DNA of 63,008 nucleotides, counting the filler, from Stramenopiles sp. TOSAG23-6 (taxonomy: Eukaryota), in NCBI GenBank assembly GCA_900128565.1. It is 50 parts of 50 records of this genome, joined end to end, with 100 filler letters (N's around TTAATTAATTAA, not from the genome) between each part and the next. Parts side by side here need not be neighbours in the genome. Positions count along the whole stretch, not along the records: positions 25,360 to 26,523 come from LT639560.1; 49 more parts are not named here. One strand, 5' to 3'. The notes under the pieces were generated by a model that had not been told where the DNA came from, ran no database searches, and saw only the letters and a program-made list of their open reading frames with translations. A program made the translations under genes and the position numbers. This document shows, in pieces, positions 7 to 56,746 of the stretch. Positions within the stretch are counted from its first letter, which is position 1; each line of letters opens with the position of its first letter.

Positions 7-554
<548 letters not shown>

Positions 555-25417: not shown

Positions 25418-26439
25418 GTATGCTCGGTCAGTCATATAGTTCAAAATTTTCACCTTGGTTGGCTACTGGTTGTTTATCTCCGCGATTTGTGTATCATGTA
25501 TGTTTTTTATTTTTTATTTCGATTCTTTTTTCATAGTAAAATATGTACCTAACAAAATTTTAAAATTTTGATGTACTGTTCTTTCATTTTTTTTTTATCT
25601 CCGTGATTTGTTCTTCAAGTATGTTTCTTTGAATTATTTTTTGGTATAAAGCATTTTGTATCTAACAAAAACAAAAACAAAAATATGTTTTCACAATATA
25701 TGAGTGTAAGCGATATGAAGCTCATCGTGTGAAAAATAAGTCTACATACTGGCTCGGAGGTTTTGAAATGCTTGTTCGTGATTATTTTCAGTTTCAAGCT
25801 GTCCGACTGGGTGACTCCATTTTCAAATTAGGAGGTCCTTGTGCAGCTTTGAATATTAAAAGTCAGGGAAATAATGATTGGTCAGGATCAACAGAAGATT
25901 TCGTTCGGTGGAAAGAAGGCCGAACAGGATGGCCACTCGTAGATGCGAATATGTACGTTTTCCTTTTCATTTGAACGTCTTATTTTTTTTTTCTATGTTT
26001 TTCTATGAAAAAATTAAAAAAAAAAAAATGTTTTTAACCCATTTCGAATGTCTATTTTTTTTTCACAAGATATGCGAGAATTATTAGCTACAGGGTTTAT
26101 GTCAAATAGAGGACGACAAAATGTTGCTAGTTTTTTAATATTAGATTTAAAAGTAGACTGGCGTTTAGGCGCTGAGTGGTTTGAGGAACAACTTCTGGAT
26201 CATGTATTTTTTCATCATGCAGGTTCAACTTTTTTTTTTTTTTTCCGTATGAATTTAAAATTTTTTTTTTTGTATATGTATGAAATTTCATACTAAATAA
26301 TTTAATCAATTACAATTTTTTGAAATATTTTTTCACAATATATGATCCTGCATCAAATTGGGGTAATTGGGTCGCCGCAGCAGGTTTATTGGGAGGTCGA
26401 CTCAATAAATTTAATATTTTGAAACAGTCCAAACAATAT
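25418..26439 (+). CDS. Cryptochrome DASH FAD-binding domain, four visible exons
   Basis: [33 protein letters not shown]...STYWL...RDYF...[36 protein letters not shown]...[13 protein letters not shown]. Confidence 0.93.
25498..25701 (+). mobile_element. Compound introner-family intron, GT...AT
   Basis: TAT CAT|GTATGT...two GTA(C/T)CTAAC modules...CACAATATAT|GAG TGT. Confidence 0.85.
25953..26073 (+). mobile_element. Diverged introner-family intron, GT...AT
   Basis: GCG AAT AT|GTACGT...CACAAGATAT|G CGA GAA restores DANMREL. Confidence 0.85.
26204..26343 (+). mobile_element. Introner-family intron, GT...AT
   Basis: GAT CAT|GTATTT...CACAATATAT|GAT CCT restores [13 protein letters not shown]. 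Confidence 0.85.
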
Positions 26440-26678
26440 GTATGTGTTATTTTTTTTTCAATTTTGAATTTATTTTTCGTACGAAATTTTGTACCTAACG
26501 AATTTTTTTTTGAAATATTTTTCNNNNNNNNNNNNNNNNNNNNNNNNNNNNNNNNNNNNNNNNNNNNTTAATTAATTAANNNNNNNNNNNNNNNNNNNNN
26601 NNNNNNNNNNNNNNNNNNNNNNNCGTACGAAATTTTGTACCTAACGTTTTTTTTTTCAAATATTTTTCCAAAATACAT

Positions 26679-27330
26679 GGTCGCATTTCTCATCAGTTTT
26701 TCTACTTCTCAATTAGAAAGGTTTACTTTTCAAGAAAACTGCCCACCTGATAAGAATCAGCGTCTCATGGGTTATGCATGGGAATGTAGATATCTTACAG
26801 AAAATACACGGGTTATGTGGGCATTGATACTTACAAATGTTATGTGGGCAATTGTTCTAACTATATATTATTTAATACCTGAAGTCTCTGAACAGGTATT
26901 AACCTGGAGAAAAGTGGAAGATTTTAAAGCTAAGGCACATTTACAAAATTGTATGATGCCAAAATTACCGAGAAAAGTTTTGTTAACTCTCAAACGTATT
27001 TTTGATACTTTCGATATTGATCATACTGGGTTTTTGAATTATGAAGAACTTGTCGCTTTAATAACAGACGTACAAAATATGCACAAGAAACCCCCTCTAA
27101 GTGAAGCACAGATGGAAGTTTTATTTTCAATGATGAATGTCAAAGACGAGACTGGGATTACATTTTCAGAGTTTGCTTCGGGACTGGCTGAAGCACAGGA
27201 CGACTTTCTTTTGAAAAACTTCATTTCTATTGATGATATAGTAGAAGAAACGATAAAGGTAACAAATATTAGTCAAAGTAGTATCACTCAACCATTGAAT
27301 GAAGTTAAAGAAGAAAAAATAAATTTGTAA
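26679..27330 (+). CDS. Membrane protein C-terminus with an EF-hand pair
   Basis: Hydrophobic helices, then FDTFDIDHTGFLNYEEL and MNVKDETGITFSEF. Confidence 0.75.
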
Positions 27331-27950
27331 ATTTTACTCAAATATGTATCAAAATTGTAGCATTGTTTTATAAGACGTTCAACAATACTACAAAAAATAC
27401 AAAAGTGTTGTTGGATACACATCATAAAAGTCGATTATGAACATATGACTGACACAAATTACCTTTCGAAAATGTAGCAGTAGAGATCTCAGTTTTCATC
27501 ATTTTTTTTCGTACGTAATTTTGTACCTAACGATTTTTTTTACAAAGTCGTCAGTTGCGTCTGCAACATAATGTAGGTAGCACCAAATCTTTGTCAAGGC
27601 ATCCCCAACTATCAACATGAGCTTCATCCCAATTATGAAAGAACCCGACTCGAGAGTGTTCATTACACGTATCTAATCCAACTACGGGATTATGCCCAAT
27701 ACCTTGTTTCATTGCAGCATTTGTGACCTGATCATGTATTTTGGAAAAATATTTCAAAAAAATATTCGTTAGGTACAAAATTTCGTANNNNNNNNNNNNN
27801 NNNNNNNNNNNNNNNNNNNNNNNNNNNNNNNTTAATTAATTAANNNNNNNNNNNNNNNNNNNNNNNNNNNNNNNNNNNNNNNNNNNNTTCTTGAAAATAA
27901 TAAATTCCCTCTACTAGTATAAAAAACTTCTCATTGAAAAATCACCATCA

Positions 27951-28334
27951 ATGGCATCGTTATCAATGACAACTTTTTACTTACGTGCTATTCTAAGTAC
28001 AGTTTTGATAAACCAATCGTGTTTTGTAGTTCCACTAAGCGTTGTTAATAACACGGATAAACAAAATGTAATTTCTTTCAGAATTGCGAAGAGACGAAAA
28101 GAAGGCGAACCACCTACGACATACAAAGTTGTACTTCGTTATAAAGGTGACAAAGAGAGAGGCGAAATGCTTGCCAGATCAATTGCAAAGGATCCATTCC
28201 ATATATCTCAAGAAGTTGTTGAACGTTCATCGAAGATAATTCCGGTAACCTGGGCGCAAAAATGGTTCACATATTTTGTGTATGAGTTCAATTATTATAT
28301 TTTAAGTTGGTTCAGACGTATTATGGGCTATTAA
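27951..28334 (+). CDS. Small hypothetical protein with a hydrophobic N-terminus
   Basis: Complete 127-aa ORF; no recognised motif. Confidence 0.45.
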   Translation: MASLSMTTFYLRAILSTVLINQSCFVVPLSVVNNTDKQNVISFRIAKRRKEGEPPTTYKVVLRYKGDKERGEMLARSIAKDPFHISQEVVERSSKIIPVTWAQKWFTYFVYEFNYYILSWFRRIMGY

Positions 28335-28506
28335 GCGTAATATACTCAAGAAACCCAACAACAATAAACCGAAAAAAAACCCTTTTCTTAGAAATAGTAT
28401 AGTATTGCTGTGCATAACGTTGGTATTGTTCTTTCACATATTTTTTTGTAAGGCTTATTTTGATTATTCTCAAATAAAATATAAAAAATGATACTTTTGT
28501 ATTTAT

Positions 28507-28962
28507 TTAACAACAACACTGATAAATTCTATTATTTAATTGTTTTGTGTCATCTCGCATCGCTTTTAACATAGAACGGAAAGAAGACGTTCCTGTCCCT
28601 AAATTAGCTTCAGATAAATAATAATCAGCAATTGACAAATGAAATGTCCGAAATGTTATGTGAAAAAATATTTTTTTTTGGTTTTGGTGTAAAAACAATC
28701 AATAGTATACATTTTTCATAGTAAAAAAAATTAAATTCATAATGAATACGTACAAGCACTTACTTGACGCAAACATTGTTTAAAAGCCTCAACTAGTTTA
28801 TCATTGTTGTGGTTAGGGTTATCCATCATAGTTTTGTTAGGGTTAGGGTTTAGTATTTTTGAGCGCGTTGAATGTATGTATTGTAAGATTGAACCACTAT
28901 TAGCAATATTTTTTTTCATATCCAAAACCATTAACCTATGCTTCGAAGGCATATACTTTAAC
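28507..28962 (-). CDS. Indoleamine 2,3-dioxygenase-like C-terminus; intron at 28653-28753 (GT...AT)
   Basis: YMPSKHR...VEAFKQCLRQVSA|FRTFHLSIADYYL...GTGTSSFRSMLKAMRDDT matches IDO motifs YMP..HR, FR..H, GTG. Confidence 0.75.
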
Positions 28963-29151
28963 ATATTGGAGAAAAAATATTTTTAAAAAAAAATCTTAGG
29001 TACAAAATTTCGATGAAAAAAAAATTAAAATTAAATTAGAAGTCCAATTTTNNNNNNNNNNNNNNNNNNNNNNNNNNNNNNNNNNNNNNNNNNNNTTAAT
29101 TAATTAANNNNNNNNNNNNNNNNNNNNNNNNNNNNNNNNNNNNNNNNNNNN

Positions 29152-30313
29152 GACATCGATTCTGAGCGATTAAAGAAAGAAGTTGAAAAGAAAGACGCTC
29201 AGCTCCTTCGACTGAAAGGTGAAACCGATTCTTTACGTTTACAAATGTTGACAATGGTTGAAGAGCTGAACAATTGGAAGAACGAAAAAGAATCTTCAAC
29301 GCAACAGAGTACATTTTCTACCTCAGAAAAGGATTCTCTCAACGAAGAAATTGCAGCTCTGAAATTCCAGTTAACGGAACGCCAGCGTAAGATTCATGAA
29401 TTAGAGTATAGAAGTAAAGAAAATCAAGATATTCACTTGAGTCCCCAAAAACAAGATAAAGCAACGAAGTTACAAATAGATGAAATGAAGAAGGAAATTA
29501 CGCGGAAGTTGACAAGTGACTTCCGAAGAAAACATGGAGAAGAATTGCTTTCTCTGCAGCGTCATGTGGCTGATCTTGAAGGGAAAATTAGTGTTGTTGA
29601 AGCAGCGCGTAGTGATGCCGAGGAGCGAGTACAACAAACACGACGACAGCTTGCTGAAAGAGACTCAATTTTTATGCAAGCCAGATCAGAAGCTTTAACG
29701 TTGCGAGATGAATCTCATGATTTCAAAACAGAAACTACAAAACTTCGAGCAGAGGTTGAAATGGAAAAGGGTAAAGTACAAAGGGCTAGACAAAATCTTT
29801 CAGATGAAATACAACGCGCTAATGAAAAATCAAATATGCACATGAAAGAAATGGCTGGAATTCGTGCACATGCTGAACGAACTGAGACTCTTTTGAGAAA
29901 TGAGCATGTATCTTTTTATTACTAATTTAATTTCGTTTTTTTTTTCATAGACAATTTTGTATTTAACGATTTTTTTTAACCAAAACAAAATTATTTTTTC
30001 ACAATACATAAAACGGTAGAAACTTTAAAAAAAGAAATAGATCGAATTCATAATCGAGCTCAAGAATTGGAGACTGAGTTGGATTTCCAACACAAGCGAT
30101 ACAAAAAAGAATCGAATTTCCAACGTGAAGCTTTGAAGAGAGCTGAGCAACAAGTCCAGAACTCTAGGCGATACGAATTAGAAAACAAAGAAGTCTCTCA
30201 GTTTCATCAACAATTATTGGTTGCATTTGGTGAAAGTAGTAGTGATGATTTATCAATGAACAACAATCGTCATAATTTCAGTTCTGCACTTATCCAGAAA
30301 GTTCACCAAATGA
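29152..30313 (+). CDS. Coiled-coil protein fragment; intron at 29908-30009 (GT...AT)
   Basis: GAG CAT|GTATCT...ACAATACAT|AAA ACG joins ORFs 29245 and 30067 in frame. Confidence 0.7.
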
Positions 30314-30466
30314 ANNNNNNNNNNNNNNNNNNNNNNNNNNNNNNNNNNNNNNNNNNNNTTAATTAATTAANNNNNNNNNNNNNNNNNNNNNNNNNNNNNN
30401 NNNNNNNNNNNNNNCAAAATTTCGTACGAAAAATAAATTCGAAATTGAAAAAAAAATAAAACATAC

Positions 30467-31525
30467 ATACAGTACGAAAGGAGAGATAGAATTTACTCAT
30501 GATTTCGCCAGAATATAAACTTTCAATACCATCATCGCCAACATTTGCTACCATTCCAGCTTGTATTAATTGTTTTAAAGATTCTAATGCGATATTATTG
30601 GTAAGAGCAGAAGCTTCACTTGGCTTCTTTTTACACAATCGAATGTAGTAAAATGTACTTTTCAACCAGTCGATGTATTTTGGAAAAATATTTCAAAAAA
30701 AAATCGTTAGGTACAAAATTTCGTATGAAAAAAATTCGAATTTGAAAAAAAAATAAAACGTACATGACGTCACCCACAGATTGTAATGTCCCTAATGCAA
30801 TTTCTGCATTAATACATTCGGCTATTTTTGGATAAAGTTTACTTTCGATTGTATATTGTCCATTCGCAAGATTTTCGTATCGTTGTTTTGTACTTGAACG
30901 AGTCATAATTATAGCAGTACCACTGGTATCAAATTGAGGACGCCCAGCTCTTCCTAGCATTTGTAATACCGCTGATGGATCATACTCAACATGTATTTCG
31001 GAAATATATTTCAAAAAAAAACCCTTAAATTTGTTAGGTACAAAATTTCGTACGAAAAAAACAATTTCAAATTTGAAAAAAAGTAAAACATACATATCCT
31101 CCTTCTGATTGACCTTTCCATTGCTCTGTTCCTTTAATAATAACAGTATGAGCTGGAAGATTCACGCCCATGGCCAAAGTTGTAGTTGTTGCAAGAACTT
31201 TTATCTGTCGTGATCGAAATAAGTCTTCCACAATATTCCGATTATGTATTGTGAAAACAAAAAAAAAAAACTAAAATTTGTTAGGTACGGAATTTCGTAC
31301 CAAAAAAAATTATAATTCATGATGAAAAAACATACATGAGACGAAAGGCCTGCGTGATGAATTGCAAACCCGTGTTTAATCGCATCACTCAGTTTTGATT
31401 CATTTTGAATTCTTCCAGCAGCAATGGAAAGTGTTTTTCTATTTTCTGCAGACTTTGATGCCCCACGTGAAAATTTTTTGAGTACATTGACAGTATCTAC
31501 TGTTGATGATCTAGTACTACAGAAT
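30467..31525 (-). CDS. HFM1: MER3/HFM1 meiotic Ski2-like DNA helicase, four visible exons
   Basis: [21 protein letters not shown]...[22 protein letters not shown]...[27 protein letters not shown]...INAEIALGT...[14 protein letters not shown]...[10 protein letters not shown]. Confidence 0.88.
30673..30763 (-). mobile_element. Introner-family intron close to consensus, GT...AT, 91 nt
   Basis: GTC AT|GTACGTTTTATTTTTTTTTCAAATTCGAATTTTTTTCATACGAAATTTTGTACCTAACGATTTTTTTTTGAAATATTTTTCCAAAATACAT|C GAC TGG. Confidence 0.92.
30991..31093 (-). mobile_element. Introner-family intron, GT...AT, 103 nt
   Basis: GGA TAT|GTATGT...CGTACGAAATTTTGTACCTAAC...GAAATACAT|GTT GAG. Confidence 0.9.
31244..31335 (-). 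mobile_element. Introner-family intron, GT...AT, 92 nt
   Basis: TCT CAT|GTATGT...GTACCTAAC...CACAATACAT|AAT CGG restores HHAGLxxxxRxxVExLF. Confidence 0.9.
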
Positions 31526-31677
31526 ATGTATTTTGGAAAAATATTTCAAAAAAAAATCGTTAGGTACAAAATTTCGTNNNNNNNNNNNNNNNNNNNNNNN
31601 NNNNNNNNNNNNNNNNNNNNNTTAATTAATTAANNNNNNNNNNNNNNNNNNNNNNNNNNNNNNNNNNNNNNNNNNNN

Positions 31678-32255
31678 AACGACTTACGCAAGAAATTCGC
31701 TGTTTACGTCGTTGTCGTAATGTGGGTGTCCCAACACCTGCAATTTTATTTGTTAATTTGGAAAGTAGTCAAATTTTCATGGAGCGGATTAATGGAGAAA
31801 CAGTCAAAAGTTTTTTATATTCAAATCCGTCAAAAACTAAGCGTATTAATATATTACAAAAAATCGGCAAAATATTGGCTACTATGCATAATCATGGTGT
31901 CAGTCACGGTGATCTTACGACATCAAATATAATGCTGCGTGATAAATTTCAAATCTGCAGTAGTTCAAATTCATTGAGTTCAACTTCGCCAGTCCTTTTA
32001 GATAATGAAATAGAAAAGGAAATTGTATTAATTGATTTTGGGCTTGGAAGTAATAAAACAAATGCTGAGGATAGGGCAGTTGACTTATACGTATTAGAAC
32101 GTGCATTTGCTTCGACACATCCAAATTCCAAAGAATTGTTTGCAGAGGTGATGAAGTCTTACGAAACGGAAGCATCAGAAAAACATTGGAAATCGACAAA
32201 ATCACGTTTAGAGGCTGTAAGAGCTCGTGGAAGGAAACGATCCTGTTTTGGTTAG
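31678..32255 (+). CDS. BUD32: KEOPS kinase Bud32/TP53RK (5' truncated)
   Basis: HGDLTTSNIML, LIDFGL, AEDRAVDLYVLERAF, VRARGRKRSCFG*. Confidence 0.95.
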
Positions 32256-32940
32256 GGTTAGGGTTTTAAAGTGAATAATTTTTGCAATACAGTATTCGTT
32301 TTTTCTTATAAGCCTTTTTATTCTATATATTTTGAAAACACTTTAAACATTGTTGTTTTTATTTTCGTCCCATTTTATATCTAATTTATTCCATAATTGA
32401 GGAAAGAGAGACCGTGTAACTTTTTCTTGCCACTGACCTCCCTTGAACATCCCTATACCAATATTCGAAGCATCATTTTCCAATTCTCTCTCACGAGCTT
32501 CAATTTCAGCAATCCTCTGCTGCTCAGTCGCTGTTTTACACAAAGGTTGAATACCACTATGTGATGCCCATAAATAATGGCTTGTATCAACTCTTTTGAA
32601 AGTTTTACTTTTTTTCTTCTTATTATTCAATGTAGTAGTTTTCTCAGTAGTTGTCGATTCATTTACATCATTCCCACTTATTTTTGTTTGTTTTGTTTTT
32701 TTTGGCTTTGATGATTTTAATGGAGCTGGTGGCGCTTTGTAACTACTTTTCCTTCGAAATAGAAAATTTCTCCAGATCCAATACTCAATTGGTTTATATG
32801 AAATATAAACCGCGAGAGGTACAGCAAATAAAAGAAAAAANNNNNNNNNNNNNNNNNNNNNNNNNNNNNNNNNNNNNNNNNNNNTTAATTAATTAANNNN
32901 NNNNNNNNNNNNNNNNNNNNNNNNNNNNNNNNNNNNNNNN

Positions 32941-33466
32941 CATATTCACTAATTACAGAGTGTAAAATTTCCAACTTTAATGTTTTAAAAGCTAAAGAAT
33001 CTCGAAGAATACTCAATAATTCCACAGTTTCTGGATATATATGAAAAGAGTCACCCTCCGGTGTAAGACTAAAGCTTGCTACTGGGAGACGCTCTATGCT
33101 CTTATTTTCTATATCTTTTACATTACCTTTTTTACTCTTGTTTTCAGAGACTTTTACTTTATCTTTTTTACTCTCATTTTGTAAGACTTTTAAATTATCT
33201 ATTTGCTTTTTACCTCTGCCATCTAGAACAAGCATGTATTCAGAACCATAAAATATTCGAGGATTAGCAAGGACCATAGCAATTTCAAATATATCTGTAG
33301 AAGTGCCTACTTTTTGTAAACCAGTAACTTTCAACGACGATACCACCTGTGGAAACAAAGCTCTTACCATTTCCTGAAAAACATCAAGACTACAACCTTG
33401 AGAAAAAATTACAGGTTTCTTGAAATCCCCTACACTACACACCAATACTGTTTGATCAGAAGTCAT
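32941..33466 (-). CDS. Hypothetical protein N-terminal fragment
   Basis: Open ORF from ATG at 33466 to the contig end; no motif recognised. Confidence 0.45.
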
Positions 33467-34412
33467 CGTATATCACCCAATGTGGAAACAATAGTTATAA
33501 AGGAAAGGAAGTATCAGAAAGGTGAACCTTTTTCTTTAGTCATGAAATGGAACCTTTTTTTTTTTCACGAATTTTTTTTTTTTTTCATTGCGCGCGACGT
33601 CGACTTTTGATTTCAAAGCCGGAAAAAAAACCTAAATTTCGTGGGCTGATTCTCAAGAGTAGCTCGACAAAATCGTTTATTACTAGCTAGAAGAGAAAAG
33701 AAGAGCAGAAAAAACGTGCAAATAGATGAAAATTAAAACAGGAAAAGGATATGAAGGAGGCAAAACATAAAAGAAGACAAAAGAAACGTCTTTAAAAATG
33801 TGCAAAATTATATATACAGCAAACCCAATGAATTATCGTCAAGCAGTTTTGTTCGACATTGCAACAGCTGTGACTGGGACATTATTTTATAATACGTACA
33901 TTACGACATTGTAGTAAGTATACAAGATTGCGTATTGGTACAGCACATGATGTTGTATTTTGTACCCGTTTATTAAGCCTCGATCAAGTGGCACCTGTGA
34001 TGTATGTTTTATTTTTTTCAATTTCGAATTTCTTTTTGTTTGTTTGTTTAGTAGAAAATTTCATACCTAGTAATCATGGAGGATGTACGTTTCTATTTAA
34101 AANNNNNNNNNNNNNNNNNNNNNNNNNNNNNNNNNNNNNNNNNNNNTTAATTAATTAANNNNNNNNNNNNNNNNNNNNNNNNNNNNNNNNNNNNNNNNNN
34201 NNTGTACCTAACAAATTTTTTTAGATTTTTTTTGAAATATTTTTCCAAAATACATGTACTTCAAAGACTGAAGCGTGTATGTTGTCACTATGATTTTTAA
34301 ATATATGTTTTTTTTTTCGTACGAAATTTAAAATTTTGTACATAAACCCTAAAAAAAAATAGATTTTTTTTTTTTTATTTTTGTAAAAAAATTTCATACC
34401 TAACAAATTTCA

Positions 34413-35311
34413 ATGTTTGGAAATATTATTGAAGATACATTCCCTCTGCGGATTTCTGCGTGTAAAATTATCTCAAGACTTTTACAGGCAGAAAAAAAAA
34501 CACTCCTTAAAGTTGAAATCTCCGAATCGAAAATCTCCGAATCGAAAGCTGGAGTGATTTCCGAGATTTCCACTTCTGGTGATATGGGATCTGTGACGTC
34601 ATTATTTGTGAATGCGTCTATCTTTGTAATTAATGGCAATGGCAAGCAGTGGATGGAAAATGCGATGTCTAATTGTATTGATTTATTGCATGTACATTTT
34701 CATTGTGAATTTCAATTTTTTATTTTTTTTTTTTAGTATGAAATTTTCATAGAAAACAATTTTTTTTGAACAATTTTAAATTTTAAATATTTTTTACAAG
34801 ATATGAAAGTGAAGTAGATGTGATGTATATTGTTATAGGCTTGATTCGTCGATTGCTTTGTCGTAAGATGGGTGGTTCAGAAATGGCTATTGCGGTGGCT
34901 CCTCTTCTTGTACCAATTCTCAAGCAGTTTTGTATGGTTTAATAATAGATTTCATAATTTCAATTTTTTTTTTCGTACGAAATTTTGTACCTAACAATTT
35001 TTTTAGAATTTTTTTCAAATATTTTTCCAAAAAGCATGGATACAAAATATAAACGATCCTTGGATGGTTGAAGATATTAGGGAGTTGTTTACGACGATGT
35101 GTAATGCACACCAAACCGTGTGTTCCATTATTCAAACTCATATGTACGTTTTCATGATTCATTTCAAATTTATTTTTTTTTCGTTTTTCATACGAAATTT
35201 TGTACCTAACATTTGTTTTTTTTTTTTCGAAAAAAAAAAAAAAAAATAATATTTTTTCATTATACATGGTTCCTGTGATTAATCAAGTTCTCACCGATCC
35301 AAATACAGTAT
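34413..35311 (+). CDS. HEAT-repeat protein fragment (importin-9-like); introns at 34692-34804, 34932-35037, 35144-35267 (all GT...AT)
   Basis: FPLRISACKIISRL...DLLH|ESEVDV...VPILKQF|WIQNINDPWMVEDIRELF...QTHM|VPVINQVL; one open frame after splicing. Confidence 0.6.
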
Positions 35312-54336: not shown

Positions 54337-55491
54337 GTTATTATTGTTATTACTATTGTTATTATTACTATTGTTATTATTGTTATTACTAGTATTATTA
54401 TTATTATTATTATTACTATTGTTATTACTATTATTAGTCCAATCGACCAGAAAAGCAATGACATGCTCCCGTATTAAATTGACTACTTTATATACAACAC
54501 ATTCCTTTTCCCATACAGAACACTTTTTCATAATAAAATCTTCAATATTAGAAAGAACCTCTGTTCCAAGCCAATTACCAACAGAACTAACATTTATTTT
54601 TGGTCCTGATTTTTCTGGATAATATTCGCTAAATTGAACACTGAGTACTAAAGGAGGGACATGTACAACACGTATTGAAGACGCTTTCCAAGAAGAAAAT
54701 GTTGCATTTCCTAAATATTGATTATTTATAATTTTTGCAATCTCAATATTTTCCTTTTTCTTTTTCTTTTCAAGCAAGACTTCAGTCTTTGCTTCTTTTG
54801 CTAATTGTATTTGTTCCTCTGCATGTTGTTGGGCAAAATAAATAGTTTCTTGTTTATGATTGACTTTTGCCAAAGCTATTCTTGCATCTATATCTAGTGG
54901 TGACGTATAATCGAAATTAACCACTTGTTCTTCTACCTGTTTGTGCTCAATCAATGTGAAAAAATATTTCAAATAAAAAAAATCATTAGGTACAAAATTT
55001 CGTATGAAAAAAAAATCGAAATTGAAATGAAAACGTTCTTGGTTAGTTTTCAATCGCTCAATTTCACGAATTGTTTCTAATGCTTCCAAGTCAGCTACAA
55101 TTGCCCGATGTTCTGCGATCTCTATACATTTTGTGAAAATATTTTAAATTTGAGATTCTTTAGATATGAAATATAAGAAAAAAAATCATTAGGTACAAAA
55201 TTTCGTACCAAAAAAAAAAAATTGAAATTCATGATAAAAACGTACATGGATAAGTTATCTAAATCATAAATAGACATTCCTTCGCTCTGAAGTAATTGAA
55301 ACGTTTCTTCAAGCGAAAATAACTTTTCTTGAGCTTCTAAAAGAGGAACATTTGTTTGTTTATTTTGTTTCATATTCTTTTGTGCATTATTATTTTGTGT
55401 CATGGCTTGCTTTGACTCCACTGGAACTGCCACACTTTGCTTTGACTCCACTGGAACTGCCACACTTTGCTTTGACTCCACTGGAACTGCC
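54337..55491 (-). CDS. RWD-domain protein fragment (RNF14-like); intron at 55124-55245 (GT...AT)
   Basis: DLEALETI...VVHVPPLVLSVQFSEYYP...P.I.V....WL...ECVVYKVVNLIREH. Confidence 0.7.
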
Positions 55492-55591: not shown

Positions 55592-56746
55592 GTTATTATT
55601 GTTATTACTATTGTTATTATTACTATTGTTATTATTGTTATTACTAGTATTATTATTATTATTATTATTACTATTGTTATTACTATTATTAGTCCAATCG
55701 ACCAGAAAAGCAATGACATGCTCCCGTATTAAATTGACTACTTTATATACAACACATTCCTTTTCCCATACAGAACACTTTTTCATAATAAAATCTTCAA
55801 TATTAGAAAGAACCTCTGTTCCAAGCCAATTACCAACAGAACTAACATTTATTTTTGGTCCTGATTTTTCTGGATAATATTCGCTAAATTGAACACTGAG
55901 TACTAAAGGAGGGACATGTACAACACGTATTGAAGACGCTTTCCAAGAAGAAAATGTTGCATTTCCTAAATATTGATTATTTATAATTTTTGCAATCTCA
56001 ATATTTTCCTTTTTCTTTTTCTTTTCAAGCAAGACTTCAGTCTTTGCTTCTTTTGCTAATTGTATTTGTTCCTCTGCATGTTGTTGGGCAAAATAAATAG
56101 TTTCTTGTTTATGATTGACTTTTGCCAAAGCTATTCTTGCATCTATATCTAGTGGTGACGTATAATCGAAATTAACCACTTGTTCTTCTACCTGTTTGTG
56201 CTCAATCAATGTGAAAAAATATTTCAAATAAAAAAAATCATTAGGTACAAAATTTCGTATGAAAAAAAAATCGAAATTGAAATGAAAACGTTCTTGGTTA
56301 GTTTTCAATCGCTCAATTTCACGAATTGTTTCTAATGCTTCCAAGTCAGCTACAATTGCCCGATGTTCTGCGATCTCTATACATTTTGTGAAAATATTTT
56401 AAATTTGAGATTCTTTAGATATGAAATATAAGAAAAAAAATCATTAGGTACAAAATTTCGTACCAAAAAAAAAAAATTGAAATTCATGATAAAAACGTAC
56501 ATGGATAAGTTATCTAAATCATAAATAGACATTCCTTCGCTCTGAAGTAATTGAAACGTTTCTTCAAGCGAAAATAACTTTTCTTGAGCTTCTAAAAGAG
56601 GAACATTTGTTTGTTTATTTTGTTTCATATTCTTTTGTGCATTATTATTTTGTGTCATGGCTTGCTTTGACTCCACTGGAACTGCCACACTTTGCTTTGA
56701 CTCCACTGGAACTGCCACACTTTGCTTTGACTCCACTGGAACTGCC
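55592..56746. repeat. Exact duplicate of contig 54337-55491
   Basis: Same 1155-nt length and ends; identical ORF translations. Confidence 0.95.

Follow-up and report, generated by a model that had tools for sequence, protein, structure and literature searches.

Apparent passing-over of an AG in a CRY-DASH intron of Stramenopiles sp. TOSAG23-6: a probable GT..AT introner family and its U1 small nuclear RNA

Does the intron at 25953-26073 in a CRY-DASH gene of Stramenopiles sp. TOSAG23-6 really end in AT, passing over an AG that lies four bases upstream, and if so, by what rule is the acceptor chosen? The gene lies in a 63,008-nucleotide stretch of this genome (hereafter the window), which joins about 50 short contigs, each roughly 1.16 kb, with N spacers between them; the assembly (GCA_900128565.1) holds 21.1 Mb in 6236 contigs and is incomplete. 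A sequence-only reading had proposed that the AG is skipped here and in a second intron of the same ending, at 34692-34804. We consider it likely (probability about 0.7) that an abundant introner, resembling a miniature inverted-repeat transposable element, gave rise to both introns as copies that have since decayed, and that these are spliced as GT..AT introns with the AG passed over. The exon, intron and motif positions of the window given below are on the plus strand.

The CRY-DASH gene is partial, with four exons at 25418..25497, 25702..25952, 26074..26203 and 26344..26440, and the product joined with a GT donor and AT end at the focal intron aligns with homologues over 185 amino acids at 53-69% identity. 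TIGR02765 was the best match of all three exons scanned: the second exon (ending ...LVDAN plus AT) covers model positions 266-340, the third ((G)RELLATGF...LLDH) 340-383, and the fourth (DPASNWGNW...) 384-417, with no gap and only a Met shared between neighbours; the three full-length homologues scanned against the same model all scored above cut-off. The junction in question falls within LVDANMRE, which is kept by 6/6 independent homologues. From the GT donor, splicing to the AT end would yield LVDANMRELL, while splicing to the AG end would yield LVDANIYARI followed by a stop, and similarity to homologues is then gone past residue 110. The proposal that the AG is passed over, and that using the AAG would shift the frame of this motif, is thus borne out as long as the GT donor is kept: frame and homologues both demand the AT end.

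This first focal intron (25953..26073, 121 nucleotides) is a worn introner copy that reads GTACGTTT...TTCACAAG ATAT. Its donor, TAT/GTACGTTT (25950..25960; the slash marks the exon border), forms 10 Watson-Crick pairs and one G-U pair with the 5' end of this genome's U1 RNA. The only YTRAY branch candidate, TTAAC, is at 26034..26038 and presumably serves as the branch site. The 3' box CACAAGAT (26064..26071) has G at position -5, where 94/105 family copies have T, and that G completes the passed-over AG (26068..26069, within AAG), the sole AG of the intron. The putative acceptor AT (26072..26073, within TAT) copies exon bases 25951-52, and the ATAT that closes the exon (25949..25952) is identical to the final four intron bases. 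A public gene model, P0129, was the seventh homologue hit and the nearest one; it is a mis-spliced model of seemingly the same gene and was not counted as independent. Cutting at AG 26069 and translating through introns, it contains WPNRMATHMREL and poly-Phe runs. Its pairing of an upstream GT at 25939 with AG 26069 was rejected, as it requires another false intron and the loss of 11 residues.

The second focal intron (34692..34804, 113 nucleotides) follows an open exon at 34443..34691 and reads GTACATTT...TTTACAAG ATAT; it too is a worn GT..AT copy, with a decayed branch box. AG occurs in it three times, with the G at 34736, 34752 or 34800, and the last of these (34799..34800) is the one four bases upstream of the end. 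That an ATAT ending with a nearby AG recurs here was confirmed, whereas the statement that using this AG gives an immediate TGA needs correction: with the GT donor the AG end reads IDLLHI and then stops, the TGA coming one codon later, and with a GC donor at 34688 the frame is kept. When AT ends are used throughout, 34443-35311 becomes an open chain of four exons, which includes two further family introns, one at 34932..35037 (exon end TT, intron end AAGCAT, with an AG three bases ahead of the end and both ends in frame) and one at 35144..35267 (GT..CAT). A Pfam search with the protein at this site gave no match above cut-off.

Both focal introns can be placed in a family with the general form exon-AT/GTA(T/C)GTTTT, a T-rich stretch, TACCTAAC (the branch box), another T-rich stretch, YMCAATAY, and two final bases. 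We catalogued 105 complete copies within 656 kb, spread over many genes, with the 3' end anchored on the box and the last two bases ignored; donors and 3' boxes were chosen by motif, and young copies are over-represented. The repeat part of the CRY-DASH contig gave 66 scored matches. Long contigs totalling 599 kb contain the branch box 218 times, and the window contains it 54 times; scaled to the genome, this would amount to thousands of family copies, although counts in this assembly are inflated by duplicate contigs (e.g., 54337-55491 and 55592-56746, identical along 1155 bases). The upstream frame is clear for 95 copies, of which 87 keep the open reading frame at the called end and 11 at the end four bases earlier, with the proviso that a frame test places intron ends only modulo 3. 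In the CRY-DASH gene itself, family introns also occur at 25498..25701 (GT..TAT, 204 nucleotides, with two element-like halves) and 26204..26343 (GT..TAT, 140 nucleotides).

The last two intron bases of the 105 copies are AT in 82, TT in 10, AG in 5 and others in 8, and the final triplet is CAT in 70 and TAT in 11; position -3 is a pyrimidine in 104 copies and position -2 is A in 91. The exon likewise ends in AT in 83/105 copies, preceded by C or T in most. Exact matches between exon end and intron end other than AT number 9, as against 1.1 expected by permutation (0/100000 permutations reach 9), while the match at -3 is no better than chance, which points to a target duplication of 2 bp; 13 of the 22 non-AT exon ends nevertheless differ from the intron end, and selection for matching could also play a part. 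The duplicated bases found at intron ends are AT, TT, CT, GT, AA and AG. The inverted match between the element ends (GTAT..ATAC) is just 4 bp, plus T runs. Judged as U2-type introns, the copies have a GT donor that pairs with U1, but the YAG acceptor is largely replaced (AG 5/105, AT 82/105); opposite GUAGUA of U2, the family presents TACCTAAC, the first focal intron TTAAC, and the second no YTRAY. Two observations concern the range of the family. Copies at L117 (minus strand) and L113:545-653 keep the frame with ATACGT or GTTTGT donors, so donors are somewhat relaxed as well, and at L114 and L092:488-674 (minus strand) two copies stand in direct tandem with zero exon between them.

How the genome at large treats such an AG can be seen from the AG-bearing ending TTTTTYMCAAGAYAT, which is by no means rare, with 37 genome matches compared with 10 for the reversed pattern. 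The T>G change at -5 that makes the AG is about as frequent (37) as a non-AG T>G control change five bases further upstream (45), these being raw counts that include duplicates and non-intron matches. They show no strong purge of AG from the 3' box, and the skipped AG appears to be a point variant (T>G) of that box within a family-wide non-AG system, not a special signal. Seven of the 37 matches were not returned as loci; the other 30 include six duplicates, four that by eye are not element ends (L092, L093, L106, L112) and two without an upstream exon (L098, L107). At 14 of the 18 testable loci the frame is kept only at the AT end (for L096, L111 and L113 as judged by eye), and none of the 18 clearly requires the AG. 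More generally, an AG lies between branch box and end in 30/105 copies, many of them as TAG 10-14 nucleotides past the box, and in L011 and L078 even a CAG five bases ahead of the end is passed over. The branch-to-end distance varies from 27 to 49 nucleotides in the 87 frame-confirmed copies, and a fixed ruler from the branch point was rejected on this spread. The frame and homologues at the first site, the 14/18 loci and the 30/105 copies together sustain the earlier suggestion that acceptor choice here would not follow a rule of the first AG after the branch point.

The same data bear on the possibility that the AG takes a real share of splicing, with frameshifted transcripts destroyed, so that the AT end would prevail only in part or once decay has acted. 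AG is scarcer in the zone between branch box and end than composition predicts (30 vs. 72, in copies that share ancestry). AG acceptors also remain in use in this genome, since an ordinary-looking UFM1 intron at 170..441 (donor G/GTACGT) ends in CAG, as well as at five of the 105 family ends, and AAG ranks first among the alternative acceptors of yeast (PMC10711555). Against this stand the crude 37 vs. 45 comparison and the finding of the AG-making change in conserved genes with intact frame (Chd1-like, Myb and CRY-DASH), and we regard such partial use as improbable.

The U1 RNA of this genome bears on the donor. Its 5' end is AAACGUACAUG, i.e., AAACGUACAUGG compared with the Rfam consensus AUACUUACCUGG, and the three changes fit the intron family, with A2 opposite T+7, G5 opposite C+4, and A9 opposite the last T of the exon. 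A single U1 was found, on two contigs at the same coordinates, with 54 bits compared to a cut-off of 69.5. Donors of the focal type pair with it at 10-11 of 11 positions, and over 87 introns the mean is 10.4 of 11 with the genome's own U1 and 7.5 with the consensus U1, a mean that is, like the conservation of the 3' box (the pyrimidine at -3 included), partly circular because donors and boxes were picked by motif. The genes for the U5, U2, U1 and U4 small nuclear RNAs lie head to tail inside 640 bases (L052:9-645, the same as G000:C1146, with a duplicate in C6122), with a gap of two bases between U5 and U2, and are possibly one co-transcribed cluster.

With the U1 sequence at hand, the register of the cut can be weighed. 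Sliding both ends four nucleotides left gives an AT..AG intron at the first site (25949-26069) whose mRNA is identical, because exon 2 and the intron both end in ATAT; reads cannot therefore separate GT..AT from AT..AG there, while they can at the second site. At the latter, the slide gives an in-frame GC..AG intron (34688-34800) that changes LLHES to LLYES (His to Tyr). Whether the AG counts as skipped thus depends on the register. Several observations favour the GT..AT register. In-register U1 pairs (Watson-Crick plus G-U) drop from 10+1 at the GT donor to 5+2 at the slid AT donor of the first site and from 10 to 5+1 at the second, so that a four-base slide cuts pairing from 10-11 to 6-7 positions. 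L090 is an intron of the same ending in which GT..AT yields ILADEM, the motif of Chd1 structures, whereas the four-base slide yields ILADDM, altering a conserved E to D; in L104, also of this ending, GT..AT gives HRWNK (HRWQK in c-Myb), whereas slides of two or four bases left give HRWNI, altering K to I. Family copies that end in AG carry it at the very place where others have AT, as does the intron preceding the first CRY-DASH exon, with AG at 25416-17, the customary end position of the family. Moreover, G at -5 is present in just 1/105 copies, so that an AT..AG rule would cover these variants only. We therefore hold the use of the AG with a slid donor to be very unlikely.

A related scheme would cut the whole family two bases left as NN..AC introns, mostly AT..AC as in the minor spliceosome, with the AG then lying two bases before the cut and still skipped. 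The two-base duplication makes this slide silent in 83/105 copies, and the element end is AC in most. Nevertheless, U1 pairs in the GT register, L104 would become HRWNI, and AG-ending copies would turn into NN..AT or NN..AC introns whose first base varies. The family donor also lacks what we take to be the U12-type 5' consensus. U6atac gave no match in the genome search, a weak point given that the control was silent too and that U11, U12 and U4atac were not searched. On balance this scheme seems very unlikely indeed. As for removal without the spliceosome, either by end-to-end pairing (as in euglenids or Amoebophrya) or by DNA excision, in which the AG would be irrelevant, short inverted ends do pair in 3/3 predicted folds of young copies, but 0/5 folds beat shuffles (z -0.88 to 0.02), the ends are unpaired in both focal copies, and the elements have a donor that matches U1 and a branch box of CTAAC in a genome with all five major small nuclear RNAs and Prp8, which makes it scarcely credible; hairpin-guided excision in particular was set aside as unsupported.

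For the GT..AT reading, we propose the following course of events. An element of the form GTA..TAC would itself supply the donor, the branch box and the poly-U (a pattern visible in the copies, which presumably spread by transposition). Its insertion would duplicate two target bases, mostly AT, which become the final two bases of an intron that a U2-type spliceosome would excise as GT..AT. The U1 RNA, altered at three positions, would pair with CAT/GTACGTTT, including the last base of the exon. On the 3' side, by analogy with the HAU sites of yeast, the spliceosome may dock a triplet, in most copies CAT or TAT, located after poly-U and the conserved YMCAATAY box. This triplet would keep the pyrimidine at -3 and the A at -2 of YAG, with U substituting for G at -1 only; AG would be tolerated but not sought, and the AAG four bases upstream would lose owing to the purine at its -3. 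The 3' box may be either actively read or merely inherited from the element.

The docking step of this scheme draws on yeast. In the P complex, the acceptor's G(-1) is read by way of G(+1), its A(-2) by way of the branch A, and its pyrimidine at -3 by Prp8 Gln1594 (10.1101/212811). In yeast without Prp18, CAU and UAU acceptors after poly-U are used, for which a G(+1)-U(-1) pair was proposed, and AAG is the commonest alternative (PMC10711555). In the present genome the U2 GUAGUA, U5 loop 1 and U6 ACAGAGA are standard. In an alignment of Prp8, the residue aligned with yeast Gln1594 and the neighbouring essential Arg are both kept; across 55 homologue alignments, 12/624 near-invariant columns are changed, mostly conservatively, with three clustered in a MASGSTTFTK stretch. 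These three (Q>N, S>A and T>A, at human positions 1246, 1251 and 1254) lie in residues 305-313 of P0004 on L054; N>D (human 1451) and K>R (human 1514) were noted elsewhere in the protein. Since the -3 pyrimidine is present in 104/105 copies and the -2 A in 91, and since the Prp8 Gln and Arg are kept, it would be mainly the check at -1 that is relaxed.

How it could have been relaxed is the weakest step, and our leading guess, put forward tentatively and at less than even odds, is the loss or divergence of U2AF1 and/or Prp18. A search for U2AF1 gave 15 CCCH matches corresponding to 11 distinct open reading frames, none of them U2AF1-like, with a profile (PF00642) whose sensitivity to a lone U2AF1 finger is borderline; a U2AF1 motif scan gave one match, outside any coding frame, with no U2AF1-specific profile run on the genome and U2AF2 not searched. 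For Prp18 the genome search gave 0 candidates, in an incomplete assembly where the controls gave no match either.

Several points weigh against the GT..AT reading, beyond the scarcity of AG near intron ends, the modulo-3 limit of the frame test, the mismatched exon ends and the circularity of the pairing counts given above. Four of the 18 testable loci, judged by eye, are off the rule: L094 allows either reading, L114 enters a second element, L105 supports neither end, and at L108 it is the AG that leaves more codons open (37 vs. 6), in a frame that fails to join the next exon. The lack of a YTRAY consensus in the second focal intron is a further difficulty, and a second, canonical U1 gene could exist and be missing from the assembly. 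The U2AF1 and Prp18 negatives are no more than leads and that for U6atac is weak, considering the incomplete assembly and the silent controls, and loss of Prp18 alone would not explain the skip, because AAG stays the most used alternative site in yeast that lack it. The assembly also fuses unrelated genes through introner copies, so that single loci may mislead: at L111:916-1391 a V-ATPase A exon is joined to an AFG1 exon, and at L113:2-543 a dehydrogenase is probably joined to a transporter, the second match being weak. Such joins at the repeat would reflect chimeric assembly or else genuine recombination. For CRY-DASH, L090 and L104, on which we rely, the flanks on both sides match one family.

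Comparison with known systems brings out both likenesses and differences. Closest are the transposon-derived introns of Fritillaria borealis and F. pellucida, which have terminal inverted repeats and target-site duplications, are U2-type and inferred to use the major spliceosome (PMC13326754, PMC11282704), and among which AT is the commonest 3' end (34% and 44%), with YAY before the donor and at the acceptor, as in the present family (PMC13326754). There, however, the main donors are AG, U1 has a strictly conserved 5' end and U2AF is present in duplicate, while here GT predominates among donors, U1 carries three changes, and the U2AF1 search, weak as it is, gave no match. Fritillaria is an animal and the present organism a probable stramenopile, hence an independent case; the splicing is proven by RNA there and predicted here. 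Introners of Chrysochromulina and Micromonas (IE1) similarly bring their own donor and take the acceptor from duplicated target, leaving mRNA length unchanged (10.1101/2022.06.06.494994, PMC11282704); in Micromonas IE1 a 3-bp duplication provides AG, and in Chrysochromulina 4 bp are duplicated, in contrast to 2 bp here, with AT, TT, CT, GT, AA or AG.

As here, U1 is altered to suit the donor in Entamoeba (ACAAAC) and Mastigamoeba balamuthi (ACGUAC) (10.1101/2022.06.08.495308); the U1 core here, ACGUAC, is that of Mastigamoeba, and pairing extends to +7 as in Entamoeba. In addition, the U1 base that faces exon position -1 is changed here (C to A), which fits the AT target of the mobile intron and goes along with non-AG acceptors, a change of which the accessible text of that study makes no report for either amoeba. 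The HAU acceptors of Saccharomyces prp18 deletions share CAU/UAU, upstream poly-U and the proposed G(+1)-U(-1) pair, but are a minor error class beside a well-used AAG, whereas here such ends are the majority (PMC10711555). The marine protists Amoebophrya A25 and A120 share an introner origin and direct repeats at the borders, with >60% non-GT-AG introns; their ends are variable, with hairpin repeats of 8-20 nucleotides and no U1 found, unlike the stereotyped donor, branch box and matching U1 seen here (PMC7789003). A PNAS survey of 2025 names AG and AC as the 3' sites commonly found, non-canonical families having been checked against RNA alignments and failures dropped (PMC12130899). Our literature search, with most subscription journals and supplements outside it, returned no paper on this intron system.

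Some further features concern the source of the DNA. L009:1-520 (minus strand), the 5' part of an 18S rRNA gene, has features that look stramenopile and could serve to place the organism. The source label of P0129 would point to the marine MAST-3 group. Five seawater metatranscriptomes have 5-9% of sampled words in common with 25360-35300, repeat words making up ~2% of the sample, and these were not used as splicing evidence. One contig, at 37987-39146, has 54% GC within a 30% GC genome and an inverted repeat of 33 bases (at 37987 and near 38540), and is possibly an amplification chimera or a contaminant. Finally, a telomere-like hexamer, CCCTAA/TTAGGG, is found repeatedly inside coding exons throughout the window (e.g., 40820-40845 and 42070-42085), often read as NPNPN.

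Few signals in eukaryotic genes are as conserved as the AG acceptor, and few lineages are known to escape it at scale (e.g., Fritillaria and Amoebophrya). The most far-reaching account, which we think rather unlikely as a whole, is that a transposon invasion rewired the major spliceosome of a free-living protist at both ends of the intron: U1 would have adapted to the AT target and the donor, the AG-reading step (U2AF1, Prp18) would have been lost or changed, and the acceptor would be set by poly-U and the CAATAY box, with AG near-neutral and thousands of introns ending in duplicated bases. Gene finders that assume GT-AG mis-model such genes, as in P0129, which takes AG 26069 and breaks the conserved motif. 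If the GT..AT reading is true, this would be an independent escape from AG in a probable stramenopile, through one stereotyped intron family; the natural AG-bearing copies would be built-in mutants for 3' site choice, and the U1 change would link the evolution of the spliceosome with the target site of a mobile element.
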